Shown one piece after another: positions 2,442-20,563 of a DNA stretch of 29,322 nucleotides. The position numbers were made by a program, and so were the translations under genes. Every line of letters begins with the position of its first letter. Position 1 is the first letter of the stretch. The notes below the pieces were generated by a model that did not search any database, was not told the origin of the DNA, and saw nothing but the letters and a program-made list of their open reading frames with translations. This DNA is from Candidatus Brocadiia bacterium (GTDB lineage: Bacteria > Planctomycetota > Brocadiia > SM23-32), in NCBI GenBank assembly GCA_046538485.1, contig JBKHIT010000061.1, positions 1 through 29,322 of the forward strand, read 5' to 3'.

Positions 2442-3836
2442 TTACCAATCAGGATTCCGCTCCGGAATTTGCGCTTCAATCGAATCCCGCCAATCCTTCA
2501 ACATTCCATGCATTCTTTCCACGCGTTCGGGCTGAAGTTCGGCGATATTGTGCTCTTCGCTGATATCCTCGCGGAGGTTGTAAAGTTCGAGATGTCCGTC
2601 TTCGAAGAATTCGATCAGTTTGTAATCGCCTGAGCGGATGCTCGAGCCGGGTGTTCCTCCCTGGTTCCCGTAGTGTGGGTAATGCCAGAAGATGGCTTCC
2701 CGGTCGATCGATCTGGCACCTTTCAGCAAAGGCACAAGGCTGATGCCGTCGGTGTGCTGTTCGGGCAAGGGGCCAAGCCCGGCCATCTCGAGGAGGGTCG
2801 GGTAAAAATCGGGGCTTGTAACAGGTTCGCAGCAGACGGAACCGGGTTCGGTAACTCCAGGCCATTTGACGATGAGTGGTTCCCGGACTCCGCCTTCGTA
2901 CATCCAACCTTTACCTTCGGCCAGCGGGCTGTTGCAGGTGGGCGACCCTTCGGCGGTGGCCAGACCGCCATTGTCGGATGTGAAAACAACGACCGTGTTG
3001 TTTTCTTCGCCTTCGTCTTTTATAGCTTCCATAAGATGCCCGATGTTTTCGTCGAGACTTTGAATCATCGCGGCGTAATCGGGATCCGACTGGACGAGAC
3101 GCCGTTTGATCTGCCGGTCCTTTTTGCCTTCGATAGGGAACGGACCGTCAACCTCGAAGGTCTTGACAGTGTCGAGGCCCAATTCCTTGACCTTCTTTTC
3201 GTATCGTTCGACCAGTGCCTTTTTCGCCTGGATGGGACCATGGACGCAATAATAGCACATGTTGAGATAGAACGGTCGCTCGTCATTTTCTCTGATCAGG
3301 CGAATGGCCTCATCGGTAAGGTGGTCGGGCAGGTATTTGCCTTCTTCTGCGTTTTCCATCGTCGGGTTGTTCCAGGGGCTGAAATATCCGTTTGTGGGCA
3401 GACCCCACTCACAGCCGCCGATATTTTCTTCGAACCCGTGTTTGTCAGGATAATAATCCTCTTTGCCAAGATGCCATTTGCCGAGGTGCCACGTGGCATA
3501 TCCCGCTTCATTGAGAGTTGCAGCGAGGCTTTTCTCCCCGCTCGGAAGATGGTCGATGTAAGGCGCGTCAACCAGGACACCCCGTCGTGGATGGCAGAAA
3601 CCACCCCAATCGATCCAGTCTGTAACTCCTACTGTGGCCGGGTATTTTCCGCTGAGAATGCTGGCCCGGGTGGGCGAGCAAACGGGGCAGGCGGCGTAGC
3701 CATCGGTAAACTTCATCCCCTCTCCTGCGATTTGATCGATGTTCGGGGTCTCGTAGAAGGTGCTTCCGTAACATCCGATATCTTTCCATCCCATATCATC
3801 AATCAGGATGAAGACAAAATTTGGCGGTTTTGGCAT
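2442..3836 (-). CDS. sulfatase (Cys-type, formylglycine-dependent S1 family)
   Basis: Start MPKPPNFVFILIDDMG with RBS GGAAAGGA; CSPTRASILSG signature, GKWHLG, SDNGG motifs; no signal peptide. Confidence 0.93.
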   Translation of the reverse strand: MPKPPNFVFILIDDMGWKDIGCYGSTFYETPNIDQIAGEGMKFTDGYAACPVCSPTRASILSGKYPATVGVTDWIDWGGFCHPRRGVLVDAPYIDHLPSGEKSLAATLNEAGYATWHLGKWHLGKEDYYPDKHGFEENIGGCEWGLPTNGYFSPWNNPTMENAEEGKYLPDHLTDEAIRLIRENDERPFYLNMCYYCVHGPIQAKKALVERYEKKVKELGLDTVKTFEVDGPFPIEGKKDRQIKRRLVQSDPDYAAMIQSLDENIGHLMEAIKDEGEENNTVVVFTSDNGGLATAEGSPTCNSPLAEGKGWMYEGGVREPLIVKWPGVTEPGSVCCEPVTSPDFYPTLLEMAGLGPLPEQHTDGISLVPLLKGARSIDREAIFWHYPHYGNQGGTPGSSIRSGDYKLIEFFEDGHLELYNLREDISEEHNIAELQPERVERMHGMLKDWRDSIEAQIPERNPDW

Positions 3837-3897
3837 GAGACGTCCTTTCCAGCTCGTGAAAATTCTGAGGCGCAGATTGCGGACCGTGAGCCTGCCT

Positions 3898-3926
3898 AAA
3901 ATACATTGGTGCCGGGATAGCGTCAA
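3898..3926 (-). promoter_or_regulatory. putative sigma70 promoter of the sulfatase
   Basis: Minus strand TTGACG-17 nt-TATTTT, ~60 nt upstream of ATG 3836. Confidence 0.4.
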
Positions 3927-3981
3927 ACCGGGAAGGACGGAAGGGATTTTCGCGTTGGAGCAGGGGAGAACGCCAATGGGT

Positions 3982-4015
3982 TGTAGGTCCGCCTCGCCGA
4001 GGTGGACCTGCCGTT
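3982..4015 (+). repeat. GTAG-type REP-like palindrome (module 1)
   Basis: TGTAGGTCCGCCTCGCCGAGGTGGACCTGCCGTT; near-identical copies at 23532-23565 and 28432-28465. Confidence 0.8.
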
Positions 4016-4045
4016 TGACGAGTTTGTTGAACGCGATTGTGTAAT

Positions 4046-7000
4046 TCACTCCCCGGTGATTTCATGCAAGGCATCGGGGGCAACATCTTCGGGGAGTTTT
4101 TCGGTGACTGCGTGGATGTCCTGCAGGCACCGGACTTCCAGCTCGCCGGTCCGCAGAGCCTGCACGGCTTCGGCAGCAGCACGAGCGGCAGCGATAGTAG
4201 TGATCAACGGTAATTTGCGCTTGACGGCCTCTCCGCGGATGAAGATTTCATCGTGGCGCGGAACCGGGCCACTCGGCGTGTTGATCAAGAGGCCCACGTC
4301 ACGGCTTTTTATGAAATCGATGATATTCGGTCGGCCCTCGGAAAGTTTTGGTACTTGAGTAGTTTCTACGCCTGCGTTCTGTAGCGCTGCGGCGGTACCG
4401 GAGGTTGCGATCACCTCCAACCCCATCTCGGAGAACTGCCGTGCAACCGGCAAGACGGCTTCTTTGTCAGCGTCTTTGACGCTGATGAATACCTTTCCTT
4501 CGACCGGCAGAGTTTGGCCGGCTGCGATTTGGCTTTTGGCAAATGCACCTCCGAAAGTGTCGTCGACCCCCATACATTCGCCCGTGGATTTCATCTCGGG
4601 TCCGAGGACCGGATCGACTCCGGGGAACCGATCGAATGGCAGAACTGACTCTTTGACGGCGTAGAATTTCGGTTTTGGGTCTGCGGTTACGCCTTGTTCC
4701 TTGAGACTCACCCCGACCATGACTTTGGACGCTATCATTGCCATGGGGAGCCCGGTAGCTTTGGAGACAAAGGGAACGGTTCGGGATGCCCGGGGATTGA
4801 TCTCCAACACGTAGATCTCGTCATCTTTGACGGCATACTGAATGTTCATCAGCCCCACGACTTCGAGTTCCAACGCCAGTTTTCGGGTTTGTTCGCGAAT
4901 ACGCTCGATTATTTCCTCTTCGAGCGAGAACGGCGGTAGCACCATGGCGCTATCTCCGCTGTGCACGCCGGCCTGCTCGATATGTTCCATCACACCTGCA
5001 ACCACAACGTTTTCCCCGTCGCTGACGGCATCGACATCGACCTCGATTGCATCGTCCAGGAATTTGTCGATCAGGATGGGGCGGTCGGGCGCGGCCAGAA
5101 GAGCTTCGTTTACCATCCGTTCCAAATCTTCTTCTTTCCAGGCGATTACCATGGCACGCCCCCCCAGCACGTAGGAAGGGCGTATAAGGACCGGGTAGCC
5201 GAGTTCCCCGGCGATTTTATGGGCCTGTTTGTAGGACGTGGCTGTATCACTCGGAGCCTGCTGAAGGCCCAGTTTCTGGATGAGTTCGCGGAACAGTTTG
5301 CGGTCTTCCGCGCGGTCAATGGCCGCCGGACTCGTTCCGAAGATGTTCACACCGGCTTTGGCCAGCGGCACAGCGAGGTTCAACGGAGTCTGTCCGCCGA
5401 GTTGGACTACAATCCCTTCCGGTTCCTCGCGTTCGGCGATATTCAAAACATCCTCGTAGGTCAGAGGCTCGAAATATAAGCGATTCGAGATATCATAATC
5501 TGTCGAGACAGTTTCGGGGTTCGAATTGACCATTATGGTCTCATACCCAAGTTCCCGGAGGGCGAGTGAAGCATGCACACAGCAATAGTCAAATTCCAGC
5601 CCCTGCCCGATTCGGTTCGGCCCACCTCCCACGATAAGCGCTTTGGGTTTATCACTGGAGCGGCTTTCATCTTCGGTCCCATAGGACGAATAAAAGTACG
5701 GAGTATAGGCTTCGAATTCTGCGGCGCAGGTGTCCACGAGTTTGTAGACAGGAGTAATCCCGGCTTCTTTGCGTTTCTGTCGGATATCAACCGGTTCCGC
5801 CCCGATCAGCGACGCAATTTGGGCGTCGGAAAAACCCCTTCGTTTCGCGTGGGCGAGCTGGCGGTCGCTCAATTCTTCCTCGGATGCATGCGAGGCGAGC
5901 CGGCGTTCTTCGGTAACGATTTCTTCCACATTATGAATGAACCAGGGATCGATCCGGGTGAGTTCCGCGATTTCCTCGGGTGTCATGCCTTTTTTCAGTG
6001 CATATTTGATGTAGAACATGCGCATCGGATTCGGGCGTTTGAGGTTTTCGCGCACCGCTTCATGATCGATCTTGCGTTCTCCGATCGTATCAAGTCCACT
6101 CAGACCAATTTCGAGTCCACGTAGCCCTTTTTGAAGCGATTCTTTGAACGTGCGTCCGATGGCCATGGTTTCGCCGACGGATTTCATGGAGACCGTCAGA
6201 TCATCGTCGCAGCCCGGGAATTTTTCGAAGGTGAAACGCGGAATCTTCGTGACGCAATAATCGATCGTTGGTTCAAAACAGGCCGGCGTCTCCTGGGTGA
6301 TATCATTTGGGATTTCATCGAGACTGTAACCGCAGGCCAGTTTCGCGGCGAATTTTGCGATCGGGAAACCGGTGGCTTTGCTGGCGAGGGCGGAGGAGCG
6401 GGAGACTCTGGGGTTCATCTCGATGGCAACCATCCGCCCGTCTTCCGGGTTGACGGCGAACTGGATGTTGGATCCTCCCGTTTCCACGCCGACCCGCCTG
6501 ATGATATCGATCGCATCGTCCCGCATGCTCTGATACTGTTTGTCGGTGAGGGTCTGGGCGGGGGCAACAGTTATGGAATCGCCGGTGTGGATACCCATCG
6601 GGTCAATATTTTCAATGGAACAGATGATGACGACGTTATCGTTGTGGTCGCGCATCACCTCGAGTTCGTATTCTTTCCACCCGATGACCGATTCCTCGAC
6701 AAGTATTTCGTCGATGATGCTGAGTTCGAGCCCGAGGGTGGCGGCATCTTCAAATTCCTCGGCGTTGTAGGCTATCGAAGCGCCGGTTCCTCCAAGGGTG
6801 AAACTGGGGCGGATGAGCAGAGGGAACCCGAATTCTTCGGCGGCCTCGCGGGCTCCTTCGAGATTATGGGCGGGGCGACTTTCGGGAATCGCCACTCCAA
6901 TTTCCTGCAGCGCAGTCCGGAACAGCTCCCTGTCCTCCGCGCATTGAATGGCATCGTAGTTCGCCCCAATCATCTCGACACCGTATTCCTCGAGGTATCC

Positions 7001-7315
7001 GGCTTCTGAGGCCTGGACGGCGACATTCAGGGCGGTCTGACCGCCGAGGGTGGCCAGAAGCGCATCTGGCTCCTCCCGCTTGAGGACCTTTTGAAGAACC
7101 TCCGCCGTTATGGGTTCGAGATATGTGCGGTCCGCCATAACGGGATCGGTCATGATGGTGGCGGGGTTGGAATTGAGGAGAATGACTTCGTAGCCTTCCT
7201 CGCGAATAGCTTTACATGCCTGAGTACCGGAATAGTCGAACTCACAGGCTTGTCCGATGATGATCGGTCCAGATCCAAGAATCAAAATCTTTTCAATGTC
7301 GGTTCTTTTCGGCAT
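4046..7315 (-). CDS. carB: carbamoyl-phosphate synthase large subunit
   Basis: [30 protein letters not shown]; duplicated ATP-grasp halves ([30 protein letters not shown]); C-terminal MGS-like domain. Confidence 0.98.
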
Positions 7316-7321
7316 AGTTCC

Positions 7322-8080
7322 TCAAAGTCTGACGTGAACATTTCTTTGAGCGAGGTACGACTTGACCTCGCTGACACTGTATTCTCCGTAGTGGAATATC
7401 GATGCTGCGAGAGCGGCGTCGGCCTGACCTTCTGTGAGCACTTTGAAAATATGTTCTGGTCCCCCGGCGCCGCCGGAGGCGATCACAGGGATCTCAACGG
7501 CTTCTGAGATAGCGGCGTTGAGCTCGATATCATATCCCGTTGTTTGTCCATCTGAATCGATGGATGTCAACAAAATTTCGCCGGCTCCGTATTCTTCCAC
7601 GTGGCGCGCCCAATCGACCGCCTTGTGCTCAGTCGGGGTCCGGCCGGATTCAACATAGACCTCCCAGCCGCCGTCGTCGGAGCGTTGTGCATCGATTGCT
7701 ACAACAATGCACTGACAGCCGAAACTTCGGGAGGATTTTTCGATCAGTTCGGGGCTGCGCACGGCGGCCGTATTGATTGAAACTTTGTCGGCGCCGGCGC
7801 TCAGCAGCTGGTTGATGTGTTGTTCGCTGCTGATTCCACCACCGACCGTGAAGGGAATGGAAATACACTCTGCGATCCGGGTAACCAGCCCGCGAATCGT
7901 CTCGCGGGCCTGGAGGGTAGCCGTGATATCGAGAAAAACGAGTTCATCAGCGCCTTCTTTGCTGTAGGTCGCCGCGCACTCCACCGGATCACCTGCGTCA
8001 CGCAGCTGTCCGAACGAGATACCTTTCACAACCCGGCCGTTTTTGACGTCGAGACAGGGGATGATACGTTTGGCTAACAC
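7322..8080 (-). CDS. hisF: imidazole glycerol phosphate synthase cyclase subunit
   Basis: [61 protein letters not shown]. Confidence 0.97.
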
Positions 8081-8083
8081 AAA

Positions 8084-8695
8084 TCAGTCCTCTTCACAGA
8101 GGCAGCAAAAATTCGAAAGCATTTTCAGTCCGACGGCGCCGCTTTTTTCGGGGTGAAACTGGGTACCAAAAACATTGTCCCGGCTGGCCACCGAAGTGAA
8201 CGTCCGTCCGTAATCAGTAGACCCCACACTGACTTCTGATTCAGCCGGCAAAGTGTAGTAGGAATGCGCGAAATAGAAAAACTCGCCGGATTCAATATCC
8301 TCAAAAAGAGAGCAGGCGGCGGTCTGGTCGACCTGATTCCAGCCCATATGCGGGACTTTCAGTCCGCGCTCAAACCGCACAACCTGGCCCGGCAGCAGAT
8401 TCAGACCCCCATGGCGACCGTGTTCTTCGCTTTCGGAGAACAACAGTTGGTGCCCGAGGCAGATCCCGAGCAACGGCCGCCCGGAATCGGCGAACTGACA
8501 GACGACATCGTCGAGTCCCCTCTCCCGCAACTGGTCCATGGCGGGAGCAAAAGCGCCGACGCCGGGCAGTATCAAACCGTCTGCGCCCTGCAGCAGTGAA
8601 GGATTATCGGTCAACTCGGCATCCCGCTGCAATCGTCTCAGGGCAAAAAGCACACTGCGGATGTTCCCCACATCATAATCGACCACCGCGATCAT
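8084..8695 (-). CDS. hisH: imidazole glycerol phosphate synthase glutaminase subunit
   Basis: [27 protein letters not shown] (catalytic Cys), [14 protein letters not shown]. Confidence 0.96.
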
Positions 8696-10299
8696 CTCTC
8701 GCTGCTCCTTTCGCCTGCGGCCCGGACAAAATCCCGGAACAGAGGGTGGGGATTTGTTGGGTAAGACTTGAATTCAGGATGGAACTGGGTCGCCAAGAAC
8801 CAGGGATGGTCTTCCAATTCCAGAATTTCGACGAGATCCAGCTCGGGGTTTATTCCGCTGAAGACCATTCCGTTTTCTTTGAAGATTTGCCGGTAGTTGT
8901 TGTTGAATTCATAGCGATGTCTGTGCCGTTCTTGAACCTCTTCGGCCTGGTAAGCCTCACCGGCACATGTGCCGGGCTGGAGTGTACAGGGCTGTGCGCC
9001 AAGACGCATCGATGCGCCTTTTTGAGTGACCTCCTTCTGTTCTTCCAGCAGACATATGATTCTATGTTCTGTGTTTCCGTTAATTTCGGTGGTGTCGGCG
9101 CCTTCCAGTCCGCAGACGTTCCGTGCAAATTCAATGGCGGCGCATTGCAGGCCCAGACATAAGCCAAGAAAGGGGATATTGTTTTCCCGGGCGTATTTTA
9201 CCGCTTCAATTTTCCCTTCCACGCCGCGCGAGCCAAATCCGCCCGGCACCAGGATTCCGTCGGCGCCGCCGAGAGTGTCTTCGGGTCCGTTCTCCTGGAC
9301 GTCTTCGGAGAGAACTTTTCGGATATTTATTCTGGCTTCGTTGGCAGTACCGCCGTGTTTGAGGGCTTCATAAATCGATTTGTAGGCGTCCTGAAGCTCC
9401 CCATATTTGCCAACGACCGCCACCTCCACTTCCGATGTGGGGTTCAGCATCGTTTCGAGAATGTCCGGCCAGGGGCCCAGATCGAGTTCTTTGGCGGGCA
9501 GATCAAGTCTATCGATTATCAGTCGATCAAAACCTTCATCCAGAAATATGAATGGAACTTCGTAGATAGTCTGATCGACGTCCGGTTCCTCGATGACGGC
9601 TTTTTTCTCGACGTTACAAAAGAGGGAGATTTTGTCTTTTGCGGATGCGGTCAGCGGCTTTTCAGTCCGGCAGATGATGGCGTCCGGTTCGATCCCCAAT
9701 TCGCGAAGCTTTATGACCGAGTGTTGCGTTGGCTTGGTTTTAATCTCCTGCGCGGCCCGGATGTACGGTACAAGCGAAACATGGACATACATTGCGTTGT
9801 CACGGCCTTCATCAAGACGGATCTGGCGGATGGCTTCGAGAAAAGGCAGCCCTTCAATATCACCAACAGTTCCGCCGATTTCACTGATGACGACATCGAC
9901 TTCCGGTGAGACGAGGCGCCGCACGCAATCCTTGATCTCGTCTGTGACGTGGGGGATGAGCTGGATGGTCTGTCCAAGATAGTCGCCTTTTCTCTCTTTC
10001 GTCAGGACGGACCAATAAACCTGTCCGGACGTGAAATTGCAGTTCTTATGGGTGGGCTCGCCTGTGAACCGCTCGTAGTGGCCGAGATCGAGATCGGTTT
10101 CCTCACCGTCTTCGGTTACATAGACCTCTCCATGTTGGTAAGGATTCATCGTGCCCGGATCGACGTTCAGATATGGATCGAATTTTTGCAGTTTAATCCG
10201 GAGTCCCCAGGCTTTGAGAAGCATGCCGATCGAGGCGGCGGTAATCCCTTTCCCCAGCGAAGAGACGACACCGCCGGTGACGAAGATAAATTTTGTCAT
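8692..10299 (-). CDS. pyrG: CTP synthase
   Basis: [60 protein letters not shown]. Confidence 0.98.
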
Positions 10300-10332
10300 T
10301 TTTTGCGCTTTTAGTGACAGTAGTACGGGATT

Positions 10333-11448
10333 CTACGTTCGGTTGTCTTTCATCATATCTTTGAATTCCTGGAACAGGTGCTGTGCATCGTGCGGACCGG
10401 CCGAAGCTTCGGGGTGGTACTGAACACACATTATGGGCATGTCTTTGTGCCGCAGTCCTTCCAGTGTCTTATCATTGAGATTCTTGTGGGTCAGCTCGAT
10501 TTGATCCTGATCGAGTGAGTCAATATCGACGCAGAAACCGTGATTCTGACACGTAATATCGATTTTCCCCGTTGTAAGGTCTTTCACCGGGTGGTTGGCC
10601 CCGCGGTGACCGAATTTCAGTTTATAAGTTTTGCCCCCGAGGGCGAGACCGAGGAGCTGGTGGCCGAGACAGATGCCAAAAATCGGTTTTTCTCCGAGAA
10701 GCTTTTGGAGCTCTTCCACAACGTAGGGAATTCCCGCCGGATCTCCCGGCCCATTTGAAAGCATGATTCCATCCGGATCTATGGCCTGCACGTCTTCAGC
10801 TTTGGTGCTGGCAGGAACCAGTGTGATATGGCATCCGGCTTCGGCCAGGCAGCGAAGAATGTTGTATTTTGCACCGAAATCATACACCACAACCCGCGCA
10901 TCGGCGGAATCCGCACGGGGGCTGCCTTCCCACTCGTAGGGTTTATCGCAGGTGACCTCTTTCACAAGATCGCGACCGATGAGCCCCGGCGCCTGGCGTG
11001 CGCGTTCAACGAGATCGTCACGTTCGAACTCGCCTGCAGCCAGCGCCGCCCGCATGGCGCCGGCCTCGCGGATATGACGTGTCAGAGCCCGCGTATCTAC
11101 TTCGCTGAGGGCGACGATATCGTGATCTTTCAGGTAATCTCCGAGTTGCCCCTGGGACTCGTTATTGGAGGGGTAGGGACAGTATTCTCTGACGATAAAT
11201 CCTTCGGCCTTTGGAGCTGCGGATTCGATATCCTGGCCATTCACTCCATAGTTTCCGATCAGGGGGTAGGTCATTGTGACGATCTGGCCTTTGTAGGAGG
11301 GATCCGTCAGAATCTCCTGGTAGCCTGTCATGCTGGTATTGAAAACGACTTCACCGGTTTTTATCCCGGGTGCGCCGAAGGATTCCCCTTCCAGGAAGAA
11401 GCCGTCTTCCAGGGCGATAGCCCCGCGGGGCGGCATGTTTTGGCTCAT
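10333..11448 (-). CDS. carA: carbamoyl-phosphate synthase small (glutaminase) subunit
   Basis: GEVVFNTSMTGYQEILTDPSY, LSNGPGDP, FGICLGHQ, FGHRGANHPV, QYHPEA. Confidence 0.97.
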   Translation of the reverse strand: MSQNMPPRGAIALEDGFFLEGESFGAPGIKTGEVVFNTSMTGYQEILTDPSYKGQIVTMTYPLIGNYGVNGQDIESAAPKAEGFIVREYCPYPSNNESQGQLGDYLKDHDIVALSEVDTRALTRHIREAGAMRAALAAGEFERDDLVERARQAPGLIGRDLVKEVTCDKPYEWEGSPRADSADARVVVYDFGAKYNILRCLAEAGCHITLVPASTKAEDVQAIDPDGIMLSNGPGDPAGIPYVVEELQKLLGEKPIFGICLGHQLLGLALGGKTYKLKFGHRGANHPVKDLTTGKIDITCQNHGFCVDIDSLDQDQIELTHKNLNDKTLEGLRHKDMPIMCVQYHPEASAGPHDAQHLFQEFKDMMKDNRT

Positions 11449-11533
11449 GAGTGCCTCTCAAATTATGATTGTCACTTTTTTGTTGAACTTTTATGCGGAA
11501 GCAAACGGCCACGAGTCTGTTTCAACCGGGGCT

Positions 11534-12340
11534 TTACCAGTTTCGATAAATTTCGGGCAAAGTTCGTTTGTGTTGCGCTTTTTCGATCATAGATCGCACT
11601 TTTTTAACAGCGTCGGGATCAGCCTGTGGTTCACGGCCGGTCTGCAATGCATCAACGATTTCGTCGATCACGTCGTAACTGAGCCCGATTTCACTTTCGT
11701 CTGTTTGACCCGGCCAGAGCCCGGCGCTTGGCGGTTTATTGATTACAACTTCCGGAATGCTCAGTTCCCGGGCCAGTTCCCGGACTTCTGATTTAAGGAG
11801 TCCGCCGATCGGCAGAATATCGGCGCCGCCATCGCCGTATTTCGTGAAATATCCCAGAGCCAATTCGGTCCGGTTTCCTGTTCCGGCCACAAGGTTGTTG
11901 CGAACGTTGGCAAAGAAATAGAGGGACGTCATCCTCAATCGCGGTTTTATGTTGGCTCGCGCGAGACTCGAGTCTTCTTCCGGGAGCTGCTCGAGAAAAT
12001 CCTGGTAAATTTTATCGAGCGAGACCGTTTCGGTTTGAACCCCGAGACTATCGGCAACCAATTGCGCGTGTTCGGTGTCCTGGTGTTCGCTTTCACAGGG
12101 CATTATTATTCCCAGGCTTTCATGACCGACGGCGTTTTTCGCGAGACCCAGCACCACGGCCGAATCAACGCCACCGCTCAGGCCAACGACAATCCCTTCC
12201 GCACCGGCTTCGCGCGTTTTCTGTTCAAGCCAGTCCGCGATTTTTTTTGAGATGGCTGTAAAATCCCTTTTTGTCGGATTTCTGGAAATCAAGTTTATTT
12301 TTGAACCGCGCACTCCTTTTTTCAGGTTTTGAGAGCCCAT
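11534..12340 (-). CDS. nadE: NH3-dependent NAD+ synthetase (no fused glutaminase domain); start uncertain (12340 or 12355)
   Basis: GLSGGVDSA PP-loop, ANIKPRLRM, GTGNRTE..LGYFTKYGDGG, KPPSAGLWPGQTDE; ~270 aa. Confidence 0.93.
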   Translation of the reverse strand: MGSQNLKKGVRGSKINLISRNPTKRDFTAISKKIADWLEQKTREAGAEGIVVGLSGGVDSAVVLGLAKNAVGHESLGIIMPCESEHQDTEHAQLVADSLGVQTETVSLDKIYQDFLEQLPEEDSSLARANIKPRLRMTSLYFFANVRNNLVAGTGNRTELALGYFTKYGDGGADILPIGGLLKSEVRELARELSIPEVVINKPPSAGLWPGQTDESEIGLSYDVIDEIVDALQTGREPQADPDAVKKVRSMIEKAQHKRTLPEIYRNW

Positions 12341-12383
12341 TTCATTTCTCAGCATTAGAGTATAGCGGATTTCTGCCGGCTCG

Positions 12384-13904
12384 TCAGGTCTTCCGCTCCA
12401 GGGCCTCGCGTCGCATGTCGTTGTCGACTGATACGGGATAATTTCCCGTGAAGCACGCAAGGCAATATTCGCTTCTCTCTGCCTGTGCTGCTCCCAAAAG
12501 ACCTTCCACAGTTTGATATCCCAGTGAGTCGACGCTGAGGAAGTCCGCGATTTCACTGACCGAACGCCGGGCGGCAATGAGCTGTTCGGTATCGGGGAAG
12601 TCGATGCCGTAGTAACAGGGATGCCGAATCGGCGGGGCGCTGATTCTCATGTGCAGCTCGCGCGCACCCATCTCCCGCAGCATCGAAAGACGTCCGCGGC
12701 TCGTCGTCCCGCGCACGATTGAGTCGTCCACCACCACCAGCCGTTTCCCTTTAACGACATCTTTCACGACGTTAAGTTTGATTTCGACGTGGTCGCTACG
12801 ATTTTCTTCCGGCGGGATTATGAAAGTCCGGCCAATGTACCGGTTGGAAATAAAGCCGAAATCGAGGGGGATGCCGGACCGACGCGAATATCCTAATGCG
12901 GAAGAATCTCCGGAATGCGGGATGCTCATCACGAGGTCGGCTTCCACAGGATGGGTTTCGGCGAGTTTTTCCCCCAACCGGAGACGGACATTGTGGACCG
13001 TCCGGCCGAACACGCGGCTGTCGGGTCTGGCAAAATAAATATGCTCGAATATACACCGCGCCTGATTTTCCGGAGGGGAGGCGACAAACTGCCAGGAACG
13101 TAACCCGTCATCGTCAATGCATACGATCTCGCCCGGTTCGATATCACGAATATATTCCGCCCCGAGCAGATCAAACGCGCACGTTTCGCTGGCAACGACG
13201 TATCCGCTGCCGAGTTTGGCCAGAGAAAGCGGTCGGAATCCTTGGGGGTCGCGGGCCGCCATCAGACGCGAGGAAGTCATCATGGCAAGGGAATACGCGC
13301 CCCGGACGTGATGCAACGATTCGCCGAGTGGGTCGGCCACGCCGATGTGTTCGGGGTCGGCCAGCAGATGGACGATAATTTCGCTGTCGGTCGAGGTCTG
13401 GAATATGGAACCGCGCGATTCATACAGTTCCCGAAGCGACCGGGCATTGGCGAGGTTGCCGTTGTGAGCGACCGCCACGATCCCCTGGGAGTATTCAATC
13501 ACCAGAGGCTGGATGTTCTGGACCCTTTTGGCACCGGTTGTTGAGTAACGGGTGTGGCCGACGGCGATGTGGCCCGGGAGGTTCTGAAGGTCTTTGTGCC
13601 CTATTGCCTCCGTGAGAAGTCCCAGACCTTTGGCGCTCTGGATTTGCCGACCGTCGGAGGCGACAATGCCGGCCGATTCCTGCCCCCTGTGCTGAAGGGC
13701 GTGGAGACCGGCATGGGCTTTTCGAGCGGCGTTGCTGACCCCGTAGAGGCCAATGACCCCGCAATGGTGACGGAGCTCGGAGCCCCGGGCGTCAGAAGTT
13801 CCTACCGATCCGCTGTCTGCGGGTCGAGAGCTACAGAATGAACAAGAAGAACAGCGAACCATATTGGGCTTTGCTTCCGTTTCCAGAACCTGGGGATTAT
13901 TCAT
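12384..13904 (-). CDS. purF: amidophosphoribosyltransferase, [4Fe-4S] (B. subtilis-like) type with long propeptide
   Basis: Ntn start HHCGVIG, LQHRGQESAGI, GHTRYST, HNGN, PRT motif VVVDDSIVRGTT; Fe-S Cys in RCIFE, HPCYYG, YCLACF; AGGAG just upstream of the ATG. Confidence 0.96.
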   Translation of the reverse strand: MNNPQVLETEAKPNMVRCSSCSFCSSRPADSGSVGTSDARGSELRHHCGVIGLYGVSNAARKAHAGLHALQHRGQESAGIVASDGRQIQSAKGLGLLTEAIGHKDLQNLPGHIAVGHTRYSTTGAKRVQNIQPLVIEYSQGIVAVAHNGNLANARSLRELYESRGSIFQTSTDSEIIVHLLADPEHIGVADPLGESLHHVRGAYSLAMMTSSRLMAARDPQGFRPLSLAKLGSGYVVASETCAFDLLGAEYIRDIEPGEIVCIDDDGLRSWQFVASPPENQARCIFEHIYFARPDSRVFGRTVHNVRLRLGEKLAETHPVEADLVMSIPHSGDSSALGYSRRSGIPLDFGFISNRYIGRTFIIPPEENRSDHVEIKLNVVKDVVKGKRLVVVDDSIVRGTTSRGRLSMLREMGARELHMRISAPPIRHPCYYGIDFPDTEQLIAARRSVSEIADFLSVDSLGYQTVEGLLGAAQAERSEYCLACFTGNYPVSVDNDMRREALERKT

Positions 13905-14157
13905 ACTCCTGACAGCTCAGCACTTTCCGGTTGGGTTTCGTGAAACGGCATGCCCGGCGCTTTCCGCAGTTCCGACACAGACCGATCCCGGTATCTCCAT
14001 GGGATCTGGAAATGCCGTTGGCGGGAGTGCGACTTGTCGATCGGCCAGCGCGGGTTTCAAAAGGCTGGAATTCTTTGCACGTCAGCACCGCCGCGTGCCC
14101 ATTCCTGTGGAGACACTCCGGTGATTCGGTGCAACTTTTGCAGAGAAGGTATTGCAT
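13897..14157 (-). CDS. small Cys-rich hypothetical protein, two CxxC-x5-C-x11-C-x-E[FY] repeats
   Basis: 86 aa; purine-rich RBS AAAAAGGGG; overlaps the purF start; two identically spaced 4-Cys units. Confidence 0.8.
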   Translation of the reverse strand: MQYLLCKSCTESPECLHRNGHAAVLTCKEFQPFETRAGRSTSRTPANGISRSHGDTGIGLCRNCGKRRACRFTKPNRKVLSCQEYE

Positions 14158-14200
14158 AATTTTTCCCCTTTTTATGTGTAAAACCTGCGAATATATGCTT

Positions 14201-15799
14201 CTATCCGCGGATTATTTCCATGGCTTCCTCGCGGTAGGCATTCTGGATATAAGGCAGTCCCGTGATCTCGGCCGCTTCGTTTGTGAGGGCCGCCAGGTCT
14301 TTCCGACTGATGGCTTCAATGTTGAAGTTCCTCGAACCGGCCATCAACTGCTGGAGACCGACTTTCAGTTTGTCGACGAAGGTGTACATGGCAATGGCGC
14401 CAAGAGGCATTTCTTTGACCGTATCTTCCCCGAACTCATCGCAGAGATCTTCGTAGTCAAGGAATATTTGTTCCGGTCTATCTCCATGCTGTTTGATGGT
14501 TTTCGGCAAATCCTCGCCGTTCTCCAGCCAGTTTTCCAGGTTTTTCCCCACCATCCCCGGGATCATAATCGCGCGCCCCATACATACGGCTTTGAAGTAG
14601 GGCGCTCCGAGTGCCAGCACTTTGAAAATGTGGTCTTCGGTTGAGAGCCCACCGGCCATGGCAAGGTCCGGCACATACGCGTCCTGGTCGTCGAGTTCCC
14701 GGGCAAGTTCACAGGCCATGGATTGCAGGTAGATGGTTGGAATACCCCACTCGTTCATCATGCGCCAGGGGCTCATGCCGGTTCCACCGGGCGCACCATC
14801 AATCGTCACAAGATCGAGTTTGGCGTCGGATGCCCATTTGAGAGCCATAGCAAGTTCACGCATCGGGTATGCTCCCGTTTTCAGCGTGACGCGTTTGGCC
14901 CCCAGATTGCGCAGGCGTTCGACTTCAGCGTGGAATCCTTCTTCATCAACAAAACCAAGACGGGAGTGCCTTTCAAAGTGCTTAATTTCACCTTCTTTGT
15001 AGGCTTTTTGATGGGACGGAGACGAAGGATCGGGTGTTACCAGATATCCTCGATCCTGCAGCTGGAGGGCGCGATCCAGGTTGTCGATCTGAATCTCACC
15101 CCCGATGCATTTCGCGCCCTGACCCCACTTGAGTTCGATTGTTTCGACACCCAGTTCTTGAATAGCGTATTCGGCAACCCCCAGGCGCGTGTCTTCGACA
15201 TTCATCTGGACGATCAGGTCGCCATAGCCGTTGTGAAACTTCCTGTAAATCTCGACACGATGACGCATCTCGGGGGATTCGACCAGTTTGCCGTTTTCAT
15301 CGCGTTCCAGTTGCGGGTCGACGCCGCAGACGTTTTCTCCGCAGACGAGTGTGATGCCGCTGATAGCGGCGCCCACGGCGAAATGGTCCCAGTTTTTCGC
15401 GGCGACTTCGGTTGAACCCAGAGCCCCGGTAAAAACAGGGGCCTGCATCCGAACTTTGTCATTGCCCGCACCATACTCGGTTTCGGTATCAATATCGGGG
15501 AAAAGAGTGGTATTAGGTCCAGCCTCGGCTCCTTCAGGCAGTCCGCGGGCCCCCATAGCGTAACCCATGATGTTGAGATGCGAATAATCGACCGGATAAT
15601 CTTTTTCGGCTCCGGCCGTCATGCTCCCGAATGGCCCCGGATAAAGAAGCTCGCGACCTCGCATGGACGCCTGAAAGACGTCACAATTGCCGCGGCATCC
15701 GTCAACACATCGGGTGCAGATTCCCGATTGTGGCACGACATCCCGACTTCTATTTCGTGTACCCGTTGCTTCGTTTGAGTTAGGTTGCTGCAAATTCAT
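14201..15799 (-). CDS. stand-alone FMN-binding glutamate synthase family protein (GltB domain 2-like, archaeal/anaerobe type)
   Basis: IELKWGQGAKCIGGE, DLVTIDGAPGGTG, EWGIPT, AMAGG....IFKVLALGA; N-terminal CTRCVDGCRGNC; RBS GAGGAG. Confidence 0.9.
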   Translation of the reverse strand: MNLQQPNSNEATGTRNRSRDVVPQSGICTRCVDGCRGNCDVFQASMRGRELLYPGPFGSMTAGAEKDYPVDYSHLNIMGYAMGARGLPEGAEAGPNTTLFPDIDTETEYGAGNDKVRMQAPVFTGALGSTEVAAKNWDHFAVGAAISGITLVCGENVCGVDPQLERDENGKLVESPEMRHRVEIYRKFHNGYGDLIVQMNVEDTRLGVAEYAIQELGVETIELKWGQGAKCIGGEIQIDNLDRALQLQDRGYLVTPDPSSPSHQKAYKEGEIKHFERHSRLGFVDEEGFHAEVERLRNLGAKRVTLKTGAYPMRELAMALKWASDAKLDLVTIDGAPGGTGMSPWRMMNEWGIPTIYLQSMACELARELDDQDAYVPDLAMAGGLSTEDHIFKVLALGAPYFKAVCMGRAIMIPGMVGKNLENWLENGEDLPKTIKQHGDRPEQIFLDYEDLCDEFGEDTVKEMPLGAIAMYTFVDKLKVGLQQLMAGSRNFNIEAISRKDLAALTNEAAEITGLPYIQNAYREEAMEIIRG

Positions 15800-15906
15800 T
15801 CAAGCGCTCCTCTTAATCGATCAGAAAAAAGTGATTTTGTTCGCGTAACTCCGCTGCACAAATATTGATCAAAGTGGATATCCTAATTACCGCACAGTTA
15901 TAAATT

Positions 15907-15922
15907 TGCAAACCGTGTGCCG
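15907..15922 (-). promoter_or_regulatory. sigma54 (-24/-12) promoter of the glutamate synthase/amidotransferase operon
   Basis: Minus strand CGGCAC-ACGGT-TTGCA against consensus TGGCAC-N5-TTGC(A/T), ~110 nt upstream of ATG 15799. Confidence 0.85.
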
Positions 15923-16035
15923 ACTCTGTAATACGCGGGGTTAAGAAGCGGGATAAATATCACAAATCGCTGCTTAAAAAGGCTTTACATGAAGAGCATG
16001 CGATTGTTGCCCGAGCCGCTACTCCAGATGAGGCC

Positions 16036-16070
16036 TGCGCAAAATGTGTGCAGTGATCTGTAACTGTGCA
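16036..16070. promoter_or_regulatory. putative enhancer (UAS) pair for a sigma54 activator
   Basis: TGCGC-AAAATGT-GTGCA (16036-16052; NtrC-like TGCAC-N7-GTGCA) and TGATC-TGTAACT-GTGCA (16054-16070), 115-150 nt upstream of the -24 box. Confidence 0.55.
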
Positions 16071-16221
16071 TTGTCTGGTTGGCGGCGCTGGCGGCAGGTG
16101 CGATTCGGTCGGGGCGGGAAATGGCGAATCAGGTGGTCAGGAGCCGTGCGGGGGGGGGCTGCGGATTCTCCCCCGGGGTGGCACACAAAAAGGCACATGC
16201 ACAAAAACGGCACTGGGCAAT

Positions 16222-16250
16222 TTGACACAGACGTTCCAGCGAGGTACTAT
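16222..16250 (+). promoter_or_regulatory. sigma70 promoter of glutamate dehydrogenase
   Basis: TTGACA-17 nt-TACTAT, 80 nt upstream of ATG 16331. Confidence 0.7.
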
Positions 16251-16330
16251 ATTTTGACTTTAGCCAAATAAAATGGGATCGGTGATGATTCAGGTGATTC
16301 CGAGCAAATCTGGCGATAGGAGTGTTGTTT

Positions 16331-17578
16331 ATGGTATTTAACCCTTTCAAAATGGCGCAGGATCAGTTGGCTGTTGCGGCGGAGAAACTGAATTTAGATG
16401 CGGCGGTTCACGAGTTTTTGCGGTGGCCGTTGAGAGAATTGTGGGTGACACTGCCGGTAAAAATGGATGATGGGTCGACGGAAATTTTTCGGGGTTTTCG
16501 TGTGCAGTACAACGATGCCCGAGGTCCTTGCAAGGGCGGCATCAGGTTCCATCCAGAAGAAACTATTGAAACAGTACGGGCTTTAGCCGCCTGGATGACC
16601 TGGAAGACAGCTGTCGTTGATATTCCCCTGGGCGGAGGCAAAGGTGGAGTGGTTTGCAATCCGAAAAAGATGAGCCGGAACGAACTTGAAAGATTAAGCC
16701 GCGCCTACATACGGCAGGTTGGCCGGATTGTGGGTGATCACAAAGACGTGCCGGCTCCGGATGTTTACACGGATCCGCAGATTATGGGCTGGATGATGGA
16801 CGAGTACGAAGCAATGAATGGGGGGCGTCATGAACCGGGCATGATTACGGGGAAACCGATCCCACTGGGGGGTTCATTAGGGCGTGGCGATGCGACGGCA
16901 CGGGGCGGCTGCTACATCGTCCGCGAAGCAGCGAAATCGCTCGGTATTGATACGAAGGGATCAACGGTTGCGATTCAGGGGTTCGGTAACGCCGGTCAGT
17001 ACGCTGCTCTGCTGGCGGATTCGATACTTGGCTGTAAGATTATCGCCGTCAGCGACAGCCGTGGTGGTATTATCAACGAAGATGGTTTTGATTCCGAAGC
17101 TCTTGTGAAGCATAAGCTCGACACCGGAGCCGTGGGAGATTTTCCGGAATCGGAACCAATCACAAACGAGGAACTTCTTGAGCTACCGGTTGATATACTG
17201 TTCCCCGCGGCGCTGGAAAATGTGATAACAAAGGACAACGCTCCTGAAATCAACGCCAAAATATCATGCGAATTGGCGAACGGCCCACAAACCCCGCAGG
17301 CCGACGAAATCCTTCATGAAAATTCAGTGCTGTTTATCCCCGATTTCCTGGCGAATGCAGGCGGAGTGACAGCCAGTTATTATGAGATGGTTCAGAATAT
17401 CACAAACCATTACTGGACGGCCGATGACGCGAATGCGGAACTCGATCAGAAGATGACAGCTGCTTTCCACACGGTCTATCAGGTCGCCCAAAACGAAAAC
17501 GTCCACATGCGCCTGGCTGCTTATATGGTTGCCGTGGAACGCGTAGCAGAGGCCGTCAAACTCCGCGGGTGGGTTTGA
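16331..17578 (+). CDS. gdhA: Glu/Leu/Phe/Val dehydrogenase, most likely glutamate dehydrogenase
   Basis: RGPCKGGIRFHP, MTWK, LGGGKGG, DVPAPD, ITGKP..LGGSLGR, QGFGNAG, PDFLANAGGV, LRGWV; RBS AGGAG at 16318-16322 favours ATG 16331. Confidence 0.93.
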   Translation: MVFNPFKMAQDQLAVAAEKLNLDAAVHEFLRWPLRELWVTLPVKMDDGSTEIFRGFRVQYNDARGPCKGGIRFHPEETIETVRALAAWMTWKTAVVDIPLGGGKGGVVCNPKKMSRNELERLSRAYIRQVGRIVGDHKDVPAPDVYTDPQIMGWMMDEYEAMNGGRHEPGMITGKPIPLGGSLGRGDATARGGCYIVREAAKSLGIDTKGSTVAIQGFGNAGQYAALLADSILGCKIIAVSDSRGGIINEDGFDSEALVKHKLDTGAVGDFPESEPITNEELLELPVDILFPAALENVITKDNAPEINAKISCELANGPQTPQADEILHENSVLFIPDFLANAGGVTASYYEMVQNITNHYWTADDANAELDQKMTAAFHTVYQVAQNENVHMRLAAYMVAVERVAEAVKLRGWV

Positions 17579-17585
17579 GTTAAAT

Positions 17586-19913
17586 TTAGTGCTGGGAAAT
17601 CCCTAAATCCTTGATTTTTCTGCGCACAGTATTGCGGCTGACCCCGAGTTCTTCCGCCGCCTTCGTCTGGGTAAAGTCTGTACTTTCAAGCACCTGCTGA
17701 ATCAGTGATCTTTCGACCCGAGACATGATTCTATCGTAAAGATTGTGTTTGGTGCCGGATTCTCGGAGGCTTTTCACCAACCGAGGAATGACGTCCTCGG
17801 GTTCACCAACAATATCCTTGCTGCGACGACCTTCCGGCAGCATGCGAATGTTGATGGGGAGTAGTTTCAGGGGGATTGTGCCGGTCTGGGTCAGGACAAC
17901 AGCTCTTTCGATACAGCTTTCCAGCTCTCGGACATTCCCGGGCCAGGAGTATTCCATGAATGTGTCCAGAACTTCGCGGGATATTTTGGAAACATCTTTG
18001 TCATACTGTTTGCTGTATTTCTCCAGAAAGTGATCGACAAGGAATGGAATGTCATCGGTACGCTCACGGAGCGGAGGGATAAAAATCGGGATGACGTTGA
18101 GGCGGTAAAATAGATCTTCCCGGAAAGTCCCTTTGCTCATGTGCTCTTCAAGATCGACATTTGTCGCGGCAACCACGCGTACATCCACGCTTATTGTTTT
18201 TGTTCCGCCGACTTTTTCGAATTCTTTTTCTTGAAGAACGCGCAGCAGTTTAACCTGTAGGCGTTCGCCTATGCTTCCGATCTCGTCCAGGAAAATCGTT
18301 CCTTCACCGGCGAGTTCAAAGCGCCCTTTGCGATTCTCGATGGCTCCGGTGAATGCTCCTTTCACGTGTCCAAACAGTTCACTTTCCAGCAGGTTCTCCG
18401 AAAGTGCGCCGCAGTTGACCTTGACGAAGGGGCCGTCTGATCGGTCGCTGTTGTAATGGAGCACGCTCGCGATCAGTTCCTTCCCCGTTCCCGTTTCTCC
18501 CTGGATGAGAACGTTGGCATCGCTTTTGGCGACGGTCGAGGCCGTGGCCACAACATCCTGCATGGTCCCGCTGGCGGCAACGATGTTGCCGAATTTGTAC
18601 TTCGATTCCAGATCTTTTCGCAGCCGTAGATTCTCAGCGACAAGCTCTTCCCGTTGCACCATCACCATCCGGTTAATTTTGATGGCCTGGCTGACCAGCG
18701 AGGCGATAATTTGCAGGAGGCGTTGGTCCTTGGCGAGAGTCTCTTCGTCCACAAATTCCCTGTCAACGCTGATCGCTCCAACAATTTCTTCGTCGACCCG
18801 AAGGGGAACGCAGACGAAGGAAACAGGACGACCTTCTTCCGTCCGACCGCGTGCACCTGTCCTGTTCAGAAAAAACGGGTCTTTGCTTATGTCCGCGATT
18901 GAAAGCGGTTGACCGGTTTCGACGACCCGGCCGGTGACGCCTTCTCCGATTTGATATTCTCCCCGTTCTTTTTCCGTAACACTCAGGCCATGGGCGGCTT
19001 CGATCTTGAGTCGACCCGATGACGGATCACGCAGCACAAGGGTTCCTCTCTTCAGTTTTAGTTCGCGTGCCAGGATATCCATCGTTTGCTCAAATACCCG
19101 TTCCAGCTCAAGTGCTCCGCCGATGGCATCCGACATCTCGCTCAGGACGGATAGCTCAAGTTCTTCTCGATGGGCGGGGGCAAACTCAAGTCCGTCTTCT
19201 GCGATGACGAAACGTTGTGGGATTCCAATACGTGGTGCTGCACGTCCCTCGCATTTTTTCAGTGCGACTGTGGCCTCTCCTTCTTCCACAGAGAGTTCCA
19301 GAACTACCTGAGTAATGTGCCGCAGGTTGGCCAGCAGCTGGCCCGAATGAGCTTCCCGTTCCAGAATCCAGTAGGCGACCGTGTTAAGATCGTAAAGGCG
19401 TGGACACATGTACGCGAAGAAATTGAGTGCCTGACGCTCTTCGTCCCATAATTCCAACATGCCCGTAATGCTATCAAAAACATAAAAAGGATTGTTGCCG
19501 GCCTCCCGCTCAAGTTCTTCCAGCGATTCAGAAACCTGGTCCGGATCGGGAGACGGGCAGCGTGCCACCGTTTTAACGGACGATTTCTGGGAATCCCCGC
19601 CGCCGTTGTAGAAATCGGAAAAAACTTTATCTCCCGATCCTTTGCCGCCCGTAAAGCAATCCAATAAAAGAAAATTGTCTTCCGGGAGCGTATCTCCATA
19701 CTTGGTCAGAATTGCGTTGGGAGACCTGTTAAAACTCACGTATATGACAGGTCTTTGGGATTGTTGAGAACTCCCAAAAAGGTTGCGGATAAAAACGCTT
19801 ATGGGAGCTCCGCTGTCGATTTCCCACACCACGTTATCGCCCGGCCGCAAAGAGCCGATCAGCCGGTCTATTTGCTCTATCCCGGTGCTCAAAAATGTGT
19901 CATGTCTACTCAT
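17586..19913 (-). CDS. sigma54-dependent activator: degenerate KaiC/RecA-like N-domain + GAF + AAA+ + Fis-type HTH (NifA-like C-terminal two thirds)
   Basis: [74 protein letters not shown]...FLNRT; N-terminus [22 protein letters not shown]...YVSF...VFDSITG. Confidence 0.92.
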
Positions 19914-20563
19914 ATTTGTGCTTCCGAAAAGAGATCATGTCGAGCCAAACCGTATTATTCTAAGAGAAATAAAGTTGTTAAGAAAGCGAGTGAGTGCTTT
20001 TTCTGCTGGTGTAGTGTCAAAGAAAGTGGGATTTCAAGCCGGTTTTGCGGGCTTCGGCCATTTGCAATAAAAAGGATACATCGGCTGATTCCACTTGTTT
20101 TAAGAAAAACCAGAAGTGCGACTGTTCCTGGAGAGTATTCGTCTCTGTAACTTGCATGATGTTTGAGCAGCCGCGATCAGAGGTAGATCAAATCGCGTTC
20201 AGGAGTTGCGTATTCATGAGTAAGAAAAACTGATTCCCGGGTGTGGTTGAGGACTTTGAGGGGTTTTCTCGGGTGAGTGATTATGTTATTTGTTCGGAGG
20301 GGATTTCGGCATCCAAGGAATTAATGTGATCTTTTCTACCTGGAGTTTTGGTCGAGAAGAGCGGTGAACGGTATTCAGTAGACATACAGCTACAGGACTG
20401 GGTATGATGGTCTAAACTGCCCGTAGGATCAGGCAGGGAATCCCCTCTTTCGCCACCAGAGTCTACCTTGACGGGGAGGTATAATGGCGGTAGCCTATTG
20501 ATAGTTGAAATCACAGATAGGCGTAAAATTGTTTTTGCAATTTGCAGAGGGGAGGAAATAAAA

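Follow-up and report, generated by a model that had tools for sequence, protein, structure and literature searches.

A Predicted and Conserved Sigma-54 Promoter With Activator-Type Sites Between a gltB-Like Gene and gdh in a Candidatus Brocadiia Bacterium

Results

A Conserved Sigma-54 Promoter Is Predicted in the gltB-Like/gdh Intergenic Region

Judged from its sequence and from related loci, the 530-bp gap between the gltB-like gene and gdh of this Candidatus Brocadiia bacterium contains a genuine, evolutionarily conserved sigma-54 promoter together with activator-type sites. The explanation that we favor, and consider likely to be correct, is that a sigma-54 activator encoded nearby drives a leftward transcription unit from this promoter under nitrogen limitation, and that gdh is transcribed from a sigma-70-type promoter of its own. 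The analyzed stretch of DNA (hereafter the window; 29,322 nucleotides) is a complete contig from a 5.19-Mb genome, which is 88% complete. The gap holds two divergent control regions, one for the gltB-like gene (14201..15799, minus strand) and one for gdh (16322..17578, plus strand), whereby gdh and the activator gene (17586..19913, minus strand) are convergent. The host genome encodes RpoN (417 bits in the profile search, above the model cut-off), and the sigma-54 interaction domain is matched strongly by nine of its proteins.

The leftward control region harbors the −24/−12 box CGGCACACGGTTTGCA (15907..15922, minus strand), with the GG at 15921-15920 and the GC at 15909-15908. The GG-N10-GC spacing is kept, and the first base is C instead of the T of the consensus TGGCAC-N5-TTGCW. 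From the spacing, transcription would start at ~15896. The exact motif GGCAC-N5-TTGC occurs a single time in the window, at precisely the place where the earlier note had located a sigma-54 box. When one mismatch is allowed, 11 matches are found in the window compared to 6.8 expected, so that only the exact box stands out. Orthologues of the 532-aa product of the gltB-like gene were identified in 27 of the 41 genomes searched, the own genome counted, and, within the family to which the window belongs, 14 of 15 loci have a −24/−12 box 90-188 nt 5′ of the orthologue ATG. The one exception (L011) shows a poor box match only and was dropped from the array count described below, as it provides no anchor. 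In a more distant family (f5), four of seven loci also have a sigma-54 box before the orthologous gene.

Four TGYRCA Hexamers Form a Putative Enhancer Upstream of the Sigma-54 Box

Upstream of the box, the earlier note had reported two 17-bp sites of the types TGCGC-N7-GTGCA and TGATC-N7-GTGCA. Both were found again, as site A (TGCGCA-N5-TGTGCA, 16036..16052) with its centre at about −148 from the inferred start, and as site B (TGATCT-N5-TGTGCA, 16054..16070), which is 18 bp from site A and centred at about −166. Together, the two predicted sites span −140 to −174 relative to the inferred start. Each of them can be described as a pair of TGYRCA hexamers, so the putative enhancer consists of four hexamers with offsets 0, 11, 18, and 29. 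The earlier site list was incomplete in that it overlooked a third copy (TGATCA-N5-TGTGCA on the minus strand, 15855..15871), which lies in the early transcribed region at about +26 to +42.

The pattern TGMDC-N7-GTGCA has four matches in the window compared to 0.37 expected, a count that was reached by none of 100 shuffles, and three of the four matches are the sites starting at 15855, 16036, and 16054. Of the 23 perfect TGYRCA hexamers of the window, five lie inside 15800-16330. On the genome scale, 16036-16052 is the sole 17-mer that matches 12 of 12 positions in the 5.19 Mb, and 16036-16070 is the top four-hexamer array (21 of 24; the runner-up score of 19 is found at five positions), whereby the motif was partly defined on 16036-16070 itself and the independent support comes from the orthologous sites. 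When 620 nt upstream were scanned, the best array (17-24 of 24) was found 112-149 nt 5′ of the box in 12 of 14 family loci, and in seven of these 12 the distance between array and box is 146-149 nt. The other two loci (L120 and L130) lack a canonical array, and inspection by eye revealed half-sites or related sites with a different spacing in them. The phylogenetic footprinting that the earlier note had proposed has thus been carried out, and it yielded a conserved box, a conserved array, and a conserved spacing between them.

In 10 of 14 family loci, a perfect TGYRCA hexamer is also present 40-75 nt past the box start. This amounts to 11 hexamers in 1,676 nt, or 6.6 per kb compared to a background of 1.22 per kb. 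A riboswitch-like reading of this leader hexamer was considered and dropped, since an alignment fold of 13 leaders yielded 0 conserved pairs and no Rfam family reached its gathering score anywhere in the window. Within 15600-16500 the sole sub-threshold match was to a vertebrate lncRNA model (19.9 bits, cut-off 40), which was taken as chance. As the leaders show neither a shared RNA structure nor an Rfam family, the conserved downstream hexamer is best read as a DNA site.

The Neighboring Gene Encodes a Candidate Cognate Activator With an Unusual Sensor End

The product of the activator gene (775 aa) was characterized by domain and profile matches, fold search, synteny, and co-occurrence. It consists of a KaiC/RecA-like domain with a degenerate Walker A motif (residues 1-245), a GAF domain (269-411), an AAA+ domain (445-610), and a Fis-type HTH (732-769), the latter having Fis as its closest solved relative by sequence. 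It contains no Response_reg domain, and its score with TIGR01818 (356 bits) is under the cut-off of 558.6. Residues 246-685 have their best solved-structure sequence match in a Nif-specific regulatory protein (9qq6_C, E 1.4e-107). A reading of the protein as NifA was rejected, since the score with the NifA model TIGR01817 (501.7 bits) is under the cut-off of 528.85, no TGT-N10-ACA is present in 15800-16330, and no nifH passing its cut-off was found in the 88% complete genome.

The first 245 residues of the activator are conserved across the family. Their predicted model (pLDDT 79.3) retrieved 2w0m in a Foldseek search (E 8e-13, TMq 0.68), and the matches also included KaiC CI domains and FlaH. 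At the presumed P-loop, which was placed by eye, there is an invariant D-S-G-A-P without lysine, and an intact GxxxxGK[ST] is missing. Thus, the KaiC-like domain is probably not an active ATPase; on the basis of the predicted model it would present a RecA-type fold that acts as a non-hydrolysing sensor or docking module. Domains of this kind are also fused to PPDK_N proteins, which in two other genomes are encoded beside gdh and a gltB-like gene. Further fusions, with XRE-cupin and histidine-kinase proteins from other phyla, came up in a structure search and are to be taken as leads only.

In 11 relatives, the end of the activator gene lies directly 5′ of the enhancer and on the same strand as the target. 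An insertion of gdh, in divergent orientation, between activator and target is found in the window and in L117 and L121 (one other genus) only. Among 24 other genomes of the family, 14 contain both the activator, scored by its unique N-terminal 245 residues, and the target, one contains the target alone, one the activator alone, and eight contain neither; since these genomes are related and incomplete, the co-occurrence has to be read as a pattern and not as a statistic. Within the HTH, the motif SRNT[LV]R is present in all 13 aligned activators of the family, including that of the window, and absent from the other six sigma-54 activators with an HTH that the genome encodes. The recognition helix reads RDR or RAR in three orthologues versus RRK in the rest, and in one of these three the site is altered. 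Upstream of the activator gene itself no activator-type site was found, the sole match there being a sigma-70-like one at 19954-19981. The conserved box, sites, and spacing, the adjacency in the 11 relatives, and the co-occurrence make it very probable that the neighboring activator acts on the leftward sigma-54 promoter, as had been proposed before, and from the same data we infer that the sites are bound by this protein.

gdh Has a Predicted Sigma-70-Type Promoter of Its Own

The gdh ORF opens with a GTG at 16322, whereby the likely start is the ATG at 16331 behind an AGGAG. Its product matches PF02812 (187 bits) and PF00208 (267 bits), the ELFV dimerisation and catalytic domains, and scores 615.8 bits with the GdhA equivalog model NF040817, which is under the cut-off of 750. 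The sigma-70 promoter that the earlier note had recognized (TTGACA-17-TACTAT, 16222..16250, plus strand) lies as described, matches 10 of 12 positions, and suggests a start at ~16257. Since two promoter-like sites were found in 15500-16600 compared to 1.1 in shuffles, this match alone is weak evidence. The promoter type is, on the other hand, conserved before gdh: TTGAC-N17-19-TAnnnT is found 79-100 nt 5′ of the gdh alignment start in five of eight family loci, the remaining three show weaker matches by eye only, and the −35 sequence TTGAC is invariant in a three-way alignment of the window, L117, and L121. A sigma-54 box before gdh was found in none of the eight family loci examined.

Next to this promoter there is a cluster of four GCAC-core hexamers (16180..16214, with starts at 16180, 16192, 16198, and 16209). 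Its best 17-mer (16198-16214) matches 10 of 12 positions and leaves 7 nt to the −35 hexamer; in L117 and L121, blocks of the type TGCGCA-N5-AGTGCA are aligned with it. In the other five family gdh loci, no activator-type sites were found 5′ of the gdh promoter. L118, where gdh is located elsewhere, has a single activator-type site, which lies downstream of its gdh promoter. The earlier suggestion that the activator may modulate gdh from the same region is weakly supported: a site block adjoins the −35 hexamer in all three loci with divergent gdh, but has no counterpart upstream of the gdh promoter in the other five.

The Leftward Genes Encode a GltB-Like Protein and Several Amidotransferases

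The first leftward gene encodes a GltB-like FMN-barrel protein of 532 aa with an N-terminal CxxCx3Cx3C motif, the cysteines of which (C28, C31, C35, and C39) are invariant. It matches PF01645 with 61.6 bits and none of the NCBIfam models, a domain search detected neither an amidotransferase domain nor a GXGXG domain, and a sequence search against solved structures returned nothing at E 0.01. The predicted model (pLDDT 69.7, which is mediocre) shows an FMN-type TIM barrel, for which the fold search retrieved generic FMN barrels, with the glutamate synthase GltS in tenth place (TMq 0.37). Its orthologues in Desulfobacterota, Actinomycetota, Chloroflexota, and Planctomycetota share 65-75% identity, and the name used in public sources is "FMN-binding glutamate synthase family protein." Among 80 gltB-like loci from these phyla, many of which are short, 32 contain a gdh-family gene and 14 a glnA-type gene. 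The gene had been taken for a GOGAT gene, an assignment that we do not uphold: beyond the weak PF01645 match the other GOGAT domains are missing, and the true split GOGAT of this genome is encoded on another contig (C87; see below). The GltB-like protein is an uncharacterized enzyme of nitrogen metabolism and not a demonstrated GOGAT.

The stop of the gltB-like gene is followed after 43 nt by a small Cys-rich ORF (13897..14157, minus strand, 86 aa), whose end overlaps the purF ATG at 13904. By tblastn, this ORF was located directly 3′ of the gltB-like gene in eight related loci, whereby two of the eight represent one and the same contig; it belongs to no Pfam family. Gene and profile calls then assign, all on the minus strand, purF (12384..13904), nadE (11534..12577, the real start being probably later), carA (10333..11448), pyrG (8692..10299), hisH (8084..8695), hisF (7322..8080), carB (4046..7315), and a sulfatase gene (2442..4049). 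The downstream genes (2442..13904) are tightly packed and either overlap slightly or are separated by no more than ~100 nt. Crude consensus scans yielded no more promoter-like or terminator-like sites in this downstream operon than in shuffles, and none at all in 13600-14300. The packed amidotransferase genes would probably be co-transcribed from the sigma-54 promoter.

In other genera, the gene order behind the gltB-like gene varies. In G011, carA, guaA, and carB follow the gltB-like gene and purF is located upstream of the activator, and the latter position of purF is also seen in L112, L115, and L116. Elsewhere in the genome of the window there are one further carAB set and one further hisF, whereas pyrG, nadE, and the only model-passing purF are single-copy. 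As these three genes are single-copy, with the genome being 88% complete, it is impossible that they depend solely on an inducible promoter. Either internal promoters were missed by the crude scans, or the operon is shorter, or the sigma-54 promoter merely boosts a basal level.

Related Sites Occur at the amtB-glnK and glnA Promoters

A strict scan of the genome yielded three sigma-54 boxes in apparently non-coding DNA, among them those of the window and of amtB-glnK. When 295 loose sigma-54-like boxes were searched for arrays at −175 to −95, the top two were those of the leftward promoter (score 21, at −148) and of amtB-glnK (score 18, at −147). A score of 18 was also reached once among downstream control windows, so that the support for amtB comes from the matching position and not from the score. 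The glnA operon on contig C87 is preceded by a sigma-54 box, and 134 nt upstream of this box lies a site that matches 11 of 12 positions. The same operon encodes the split GOGAT, with an amidotransferase gene, a gene for a protein with ferredoxin and FMN domains (PF01645, 477 bits), and a pyridine-nucleotide oxidoreductase gene. When the amtB promoters of genomes that have the activator were compared with those of genomes that lack it, a box within 450 nt was found in just six of 17 loci, one of them without activator. The related sites at amtB-glnK and glnA/split GOGAT suggest that these promoters probably belong to a nitrogen-limitation regulon, and nitrogen limitation is, from these sequence data, probably also the inducing condition of the leftward promoter.

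Discussion

According to the explanation favored here, the sigma-54 promoter at 15907-15922 would direct transcription from ~15896 through the gltB-like gene and the small Cys-rich ORF and probably onward into the packed amidotransferase genes. RNA polymerase with sigma-54 would be unable to open this promoter alone and would depend on the neighboring activator, dimers of which are proposed to bind the dyads 16036-16052 and 16054-16070, to form the active ring there, and to reach the promoter by looping out ~120 bp of A/T-rich DNA. Within the early transcribed region, the site at 15855-15871 would probably tune the leftward output. The activator is most likely the nitrogen-limitation regulator of this lineage and may sense a metabolite via its GAF and KaiC-like domains rather than respond to phosphorylation; the direction of the signal is presumed from the target genes' context. 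In the rightward direction, gdh would be transcribed from its sigma-70-type promoter at 16222-16250. Counted against this explanation were the two loci without a canonical array (L120 and L130), the one control window that matched the amtB score, the few usable cases in the amtB comparison, the five receiver-type activators of the genome as possible binders of NtrC-like sites, and the single-copy state of pyrG, nadE, and purF.

Alternatively, the protein that binds the TGYRCA sites could be a classical NtrC-type activator of a two-component system encoded elsewhere, and the GAF activator would then serve another promoter or be no more than a co-regulator. The enteric NtrC dyad is TGCACC-N5-GGTGCA, to which the TGYRCA sites bear a likeness, the related sites at amtB and glnA lie at classical NtrC targets, and the genome has five receiver-domain sigma-54 activators. 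We nevertheless regard this as improbable, since it is the GAF activator whose gene lies beside the enhancer in 11 relatives and is found together with the target gene, the four receiver-type activators with an HTH have different recognition-helix motifs, and the full array is unique to the leftward promoter in the genome. A different alternative concerns the extent of the leftward transcript, whereby the sigma-54 promoter would drive the gltB-like gene and the small ORF only and the amidotransferase genes would form a separate constitutive unit. This would suit pyrG, nadE, and purF as single-copy and essential genes, and it would suit the gene order that differs between genera, with purF relocated in L112, L115, and L116. 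The short gap to the small ORF and the overlap of its end with the purF start speak for a continuous unit, as do the lack of promoter-like or terminator-like sites in 13600-14300 and the glutamine amidotransferase genes that are found behind the gltB-like gene also in other genera (G011). Thus, we see a separate unit as a possibility to be taken seriously, if not as the more probable arrangement.

An addition to the favored explanation would be a reciprocal switch, in which the activator, bound at 16180-16214 and at the enhancer, represses gdh while activating the leftward promoter. The 17-bp block next to the −35 hexamer, conserved in all three divergent-gdh loci, could be understood in this way, and the offsets of the cluster (0, 12, 18, and 29) nearly repeat those of the enhancer. 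An experimental precedent is the repression of gdhA by GnfM in Geobacter (PMC2995071), and this precedent keeps a reciprocal control of gdh plausible. The sites lie, however, 5′ of the −35 hexamer and leave the core promoter free, five other family loci have no sites upstream of the gdh promoter, and the three supporting genomes come from just two genera. Moreover, the cluster at 16180-16214 could equally constitute distal enhancer sites for the leftward promoter, and in many Desulfobacterales loci a gdh-family gene lies 3′ of the gltB-like gene on the same strand, which gives no hint of a general antagonism. With sites that do not extend into the core promoter and supporting genomes from two genera, we regard the reciprocal switch as possible but less likely than not. 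An activator-driven leftward unit beside an independently transcribed gdh stays the explanation that we prefer, and any effect on gdh would come on top of it.

In enteric bacteria, NtrC activates the sigma-54 promoter glnAp2 from tandem 17-bp dyads with the outer bases TGCAC...GTGCA, which are located more than 100 bp upstream, and glnAp1, a sigma-70 promoter in the same control region, is repressible by NtrC. The window resembles this system in its sigma-54 promoter, the tandem upstream 17-bp dyads, the nitrogen-assimilation targets, and the presence of a sigma-70 promoter in the region. It differs in that its activator has no receiver and carries a KaiC-like pseudo-ATPase and a GAF domain instead, the sites are 18 bp apart, the targets are GltB-like and amidotransferase genes, and the sigma-70 promoter is that of the divergent gdh. 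With NifA, the activator shares the order of GAF, AAA+, and HTH, but it has the extra N-terminal KaiC-like domain and stays under the TIGR01817 cut-off.

A parallel for the arrangement at gdh is the GnfL/GnfM system of Geobacter sulfurreducens. GnfM activates nitrogen genes from about −131 to −91, and its repression of gdhA via sites at −77 to +7 is experimentally supported (PMC2995071). Common to both systems are a sigma-54 activator with sites upstream of nitrogen genes and extra sites at a glutamate dehydrogenase promoter. GnfM is, however, a phosphorylated response regulator, and the Geobacter gdhA has a sigma-54 promoter that is overlapped by the sites (PMC2995071), whereas the gdh of the window has a predicted sigma-70-type promoter with putative sites that stop before the −35 hexamer. 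For Geobacter, RpoN promoters have already been predicted before genes for GS and GOGAT (PMC2725144), including one before an operon with a "glutamate synthase-related protein" (GSU1235-1239). Such split GOGAT operons share with the window a predicted sigma-54 promoter before a glutamate-synthase-type gene, but the PF01645 relative of the window is far more divergent and has no GltB-type amidotransferase partner beside it. Our literature search returned no account of the activator, its site, or the leftward operon, and no description of such a system was found in passages of a 2025 sigma-54 regulon survey (PMC12316311), whose supplements may list predicted promoters. The regulatory logic is textbook, as in enteric NtrC and in Geobacter GnfM, so that the interest lies in the parts and not in the principle. 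The new parts are the sensor architecture of the activator, the content of the operon, and the uncharacterized enzyme.

A bolder reading, to which we would give little weight at present, is that, in this planctomycete lineage of the class Brocadiia, the role of NtrBC as master regulator of nitrogen has been taken over by the KaiC-like/GAF activator, that a region of ~360 bp switches a glutamine-economy operon on and GDH off, that the GltB-like Fe-S/FMN protein is a new glutamate-forming enzyme without an amidotransferase domain of its own, and that the KaiC-like domain is a widespread input module for nitrogen status. If this were true, the operon would combine a GltB relative and its small Cys-rich partner with nearly every glutamine-dependent amidotransferase of the cell, and the KaiC-like pseudo-ATPase would be an unrecognized input module, fused elsewhere to PPDK-like, XRE-cupin, and histidine-kinase outputs. 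Nitrogen control in Planctomycetota has hardly been described. The locus offers a defined regulatory module for this phylum, with a predicted promoter, a putative four-hexamer enhancer, and a candidate cognate activator whose sensor part is unusual, and two more promoters are candidate targets. It also points to a widespread and highly conserved enzyme whose gene has, in many phyla, gdh, glnA, or amidotransferase genes as neighbors.

Genes Behind the gltB-Like Gene

Immediately 3' of the gltB-like gene, which is the first gene of the leftward unit with the sigma-54 promoter, we found an unannotated ORF on the minus strand (window 13897-14157) that encodes a cysteine-rich product of 86 aa with two CxxC...C...C repeats and overlaps the start of purF. 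No Pfam family was assigned to this product, and a tblastn search located the ORF at the equivalent position in eight related loci, two of which represent one contig. This product may act alongside the gltB-like enzyme as a partner that binds metal or carries an Fe-S cluster. The overlapped purF ORF (window 12384-13904, minus strand) carries an N-terminal extension with a short cysteine-rich stretch, whereby the match to the purF model begins 47 residues inside the ORF. This extension could be a long propeptide; it could also be that the true start lies further downstream.

With purF, the genes carA/carB, pyrG, hisH/hisF, and nadE form a tightly packed string on the minus strand (window 4046-13904), which includes, besides nadE, almost every amidotransferase in central biosynthesis that depends on glutamine. 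In another genus the string is joined by guaA, and elsewhere in the genome of the window the carAB set and hisF each occur a second time. A sulfatase gene (window 2442-4049, minus strand) shares a 4-nt overlap with the carB stop and is placed as if it were the final gene of the operon; around 90 tblastn matches to this sulfatase were obtained across the genome. At the right of the window, two long, competing candidate ORFs oppose each other, one of 1349 aa without Pfam family on the minus strand (24032-28081) and one of 1168 aa on the plus strand (24347-27853).

Promoter Regions and the KaiC-Like Domain in Related Genomes

The G+C-rich spacer that separates the enhancer from the gdh-proximal sites contains a run of nine G (window 16150-16158), which may either serve as an insulator or be a homopolymer prone to assembly error. 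In loci L014 and L016, which belong to another family, a pattern search detected no sigma-54 box upstream of the gltB-like gene. By eye, repeated GGCAA...TTGCC-type motifs surround a TTGACA-type promoter there, and this sequence arrangement suggests that the gltB-like gene is under a different regulator in that family. An AT-rich family was represented by seven loci from complete genomes (L019-L025), and in four of them a sigma-54 box lies at -166 to -173; a conserved TTGACA-17-TATATA-type promoter was seen by eye downstream of the box. A window-derived query for the KaiC-like domain of the sigma-54 activator matched none of these seven genomes.

In two other genomes, the activator's KaiC-like N-terminal domain is joined to PPDK_N, the pyruvate phosphate dikinase AMP/ATP-binding domain, in proteins of approximately 870-890 aa (L118, 7690-10296; L123, 1325-3988; both minus strand), whose genes either separate gdh from the gltB-like gene or lie next to this pair. 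The KaiC-like domain seems to travel with nitrogen-assimilation loci.
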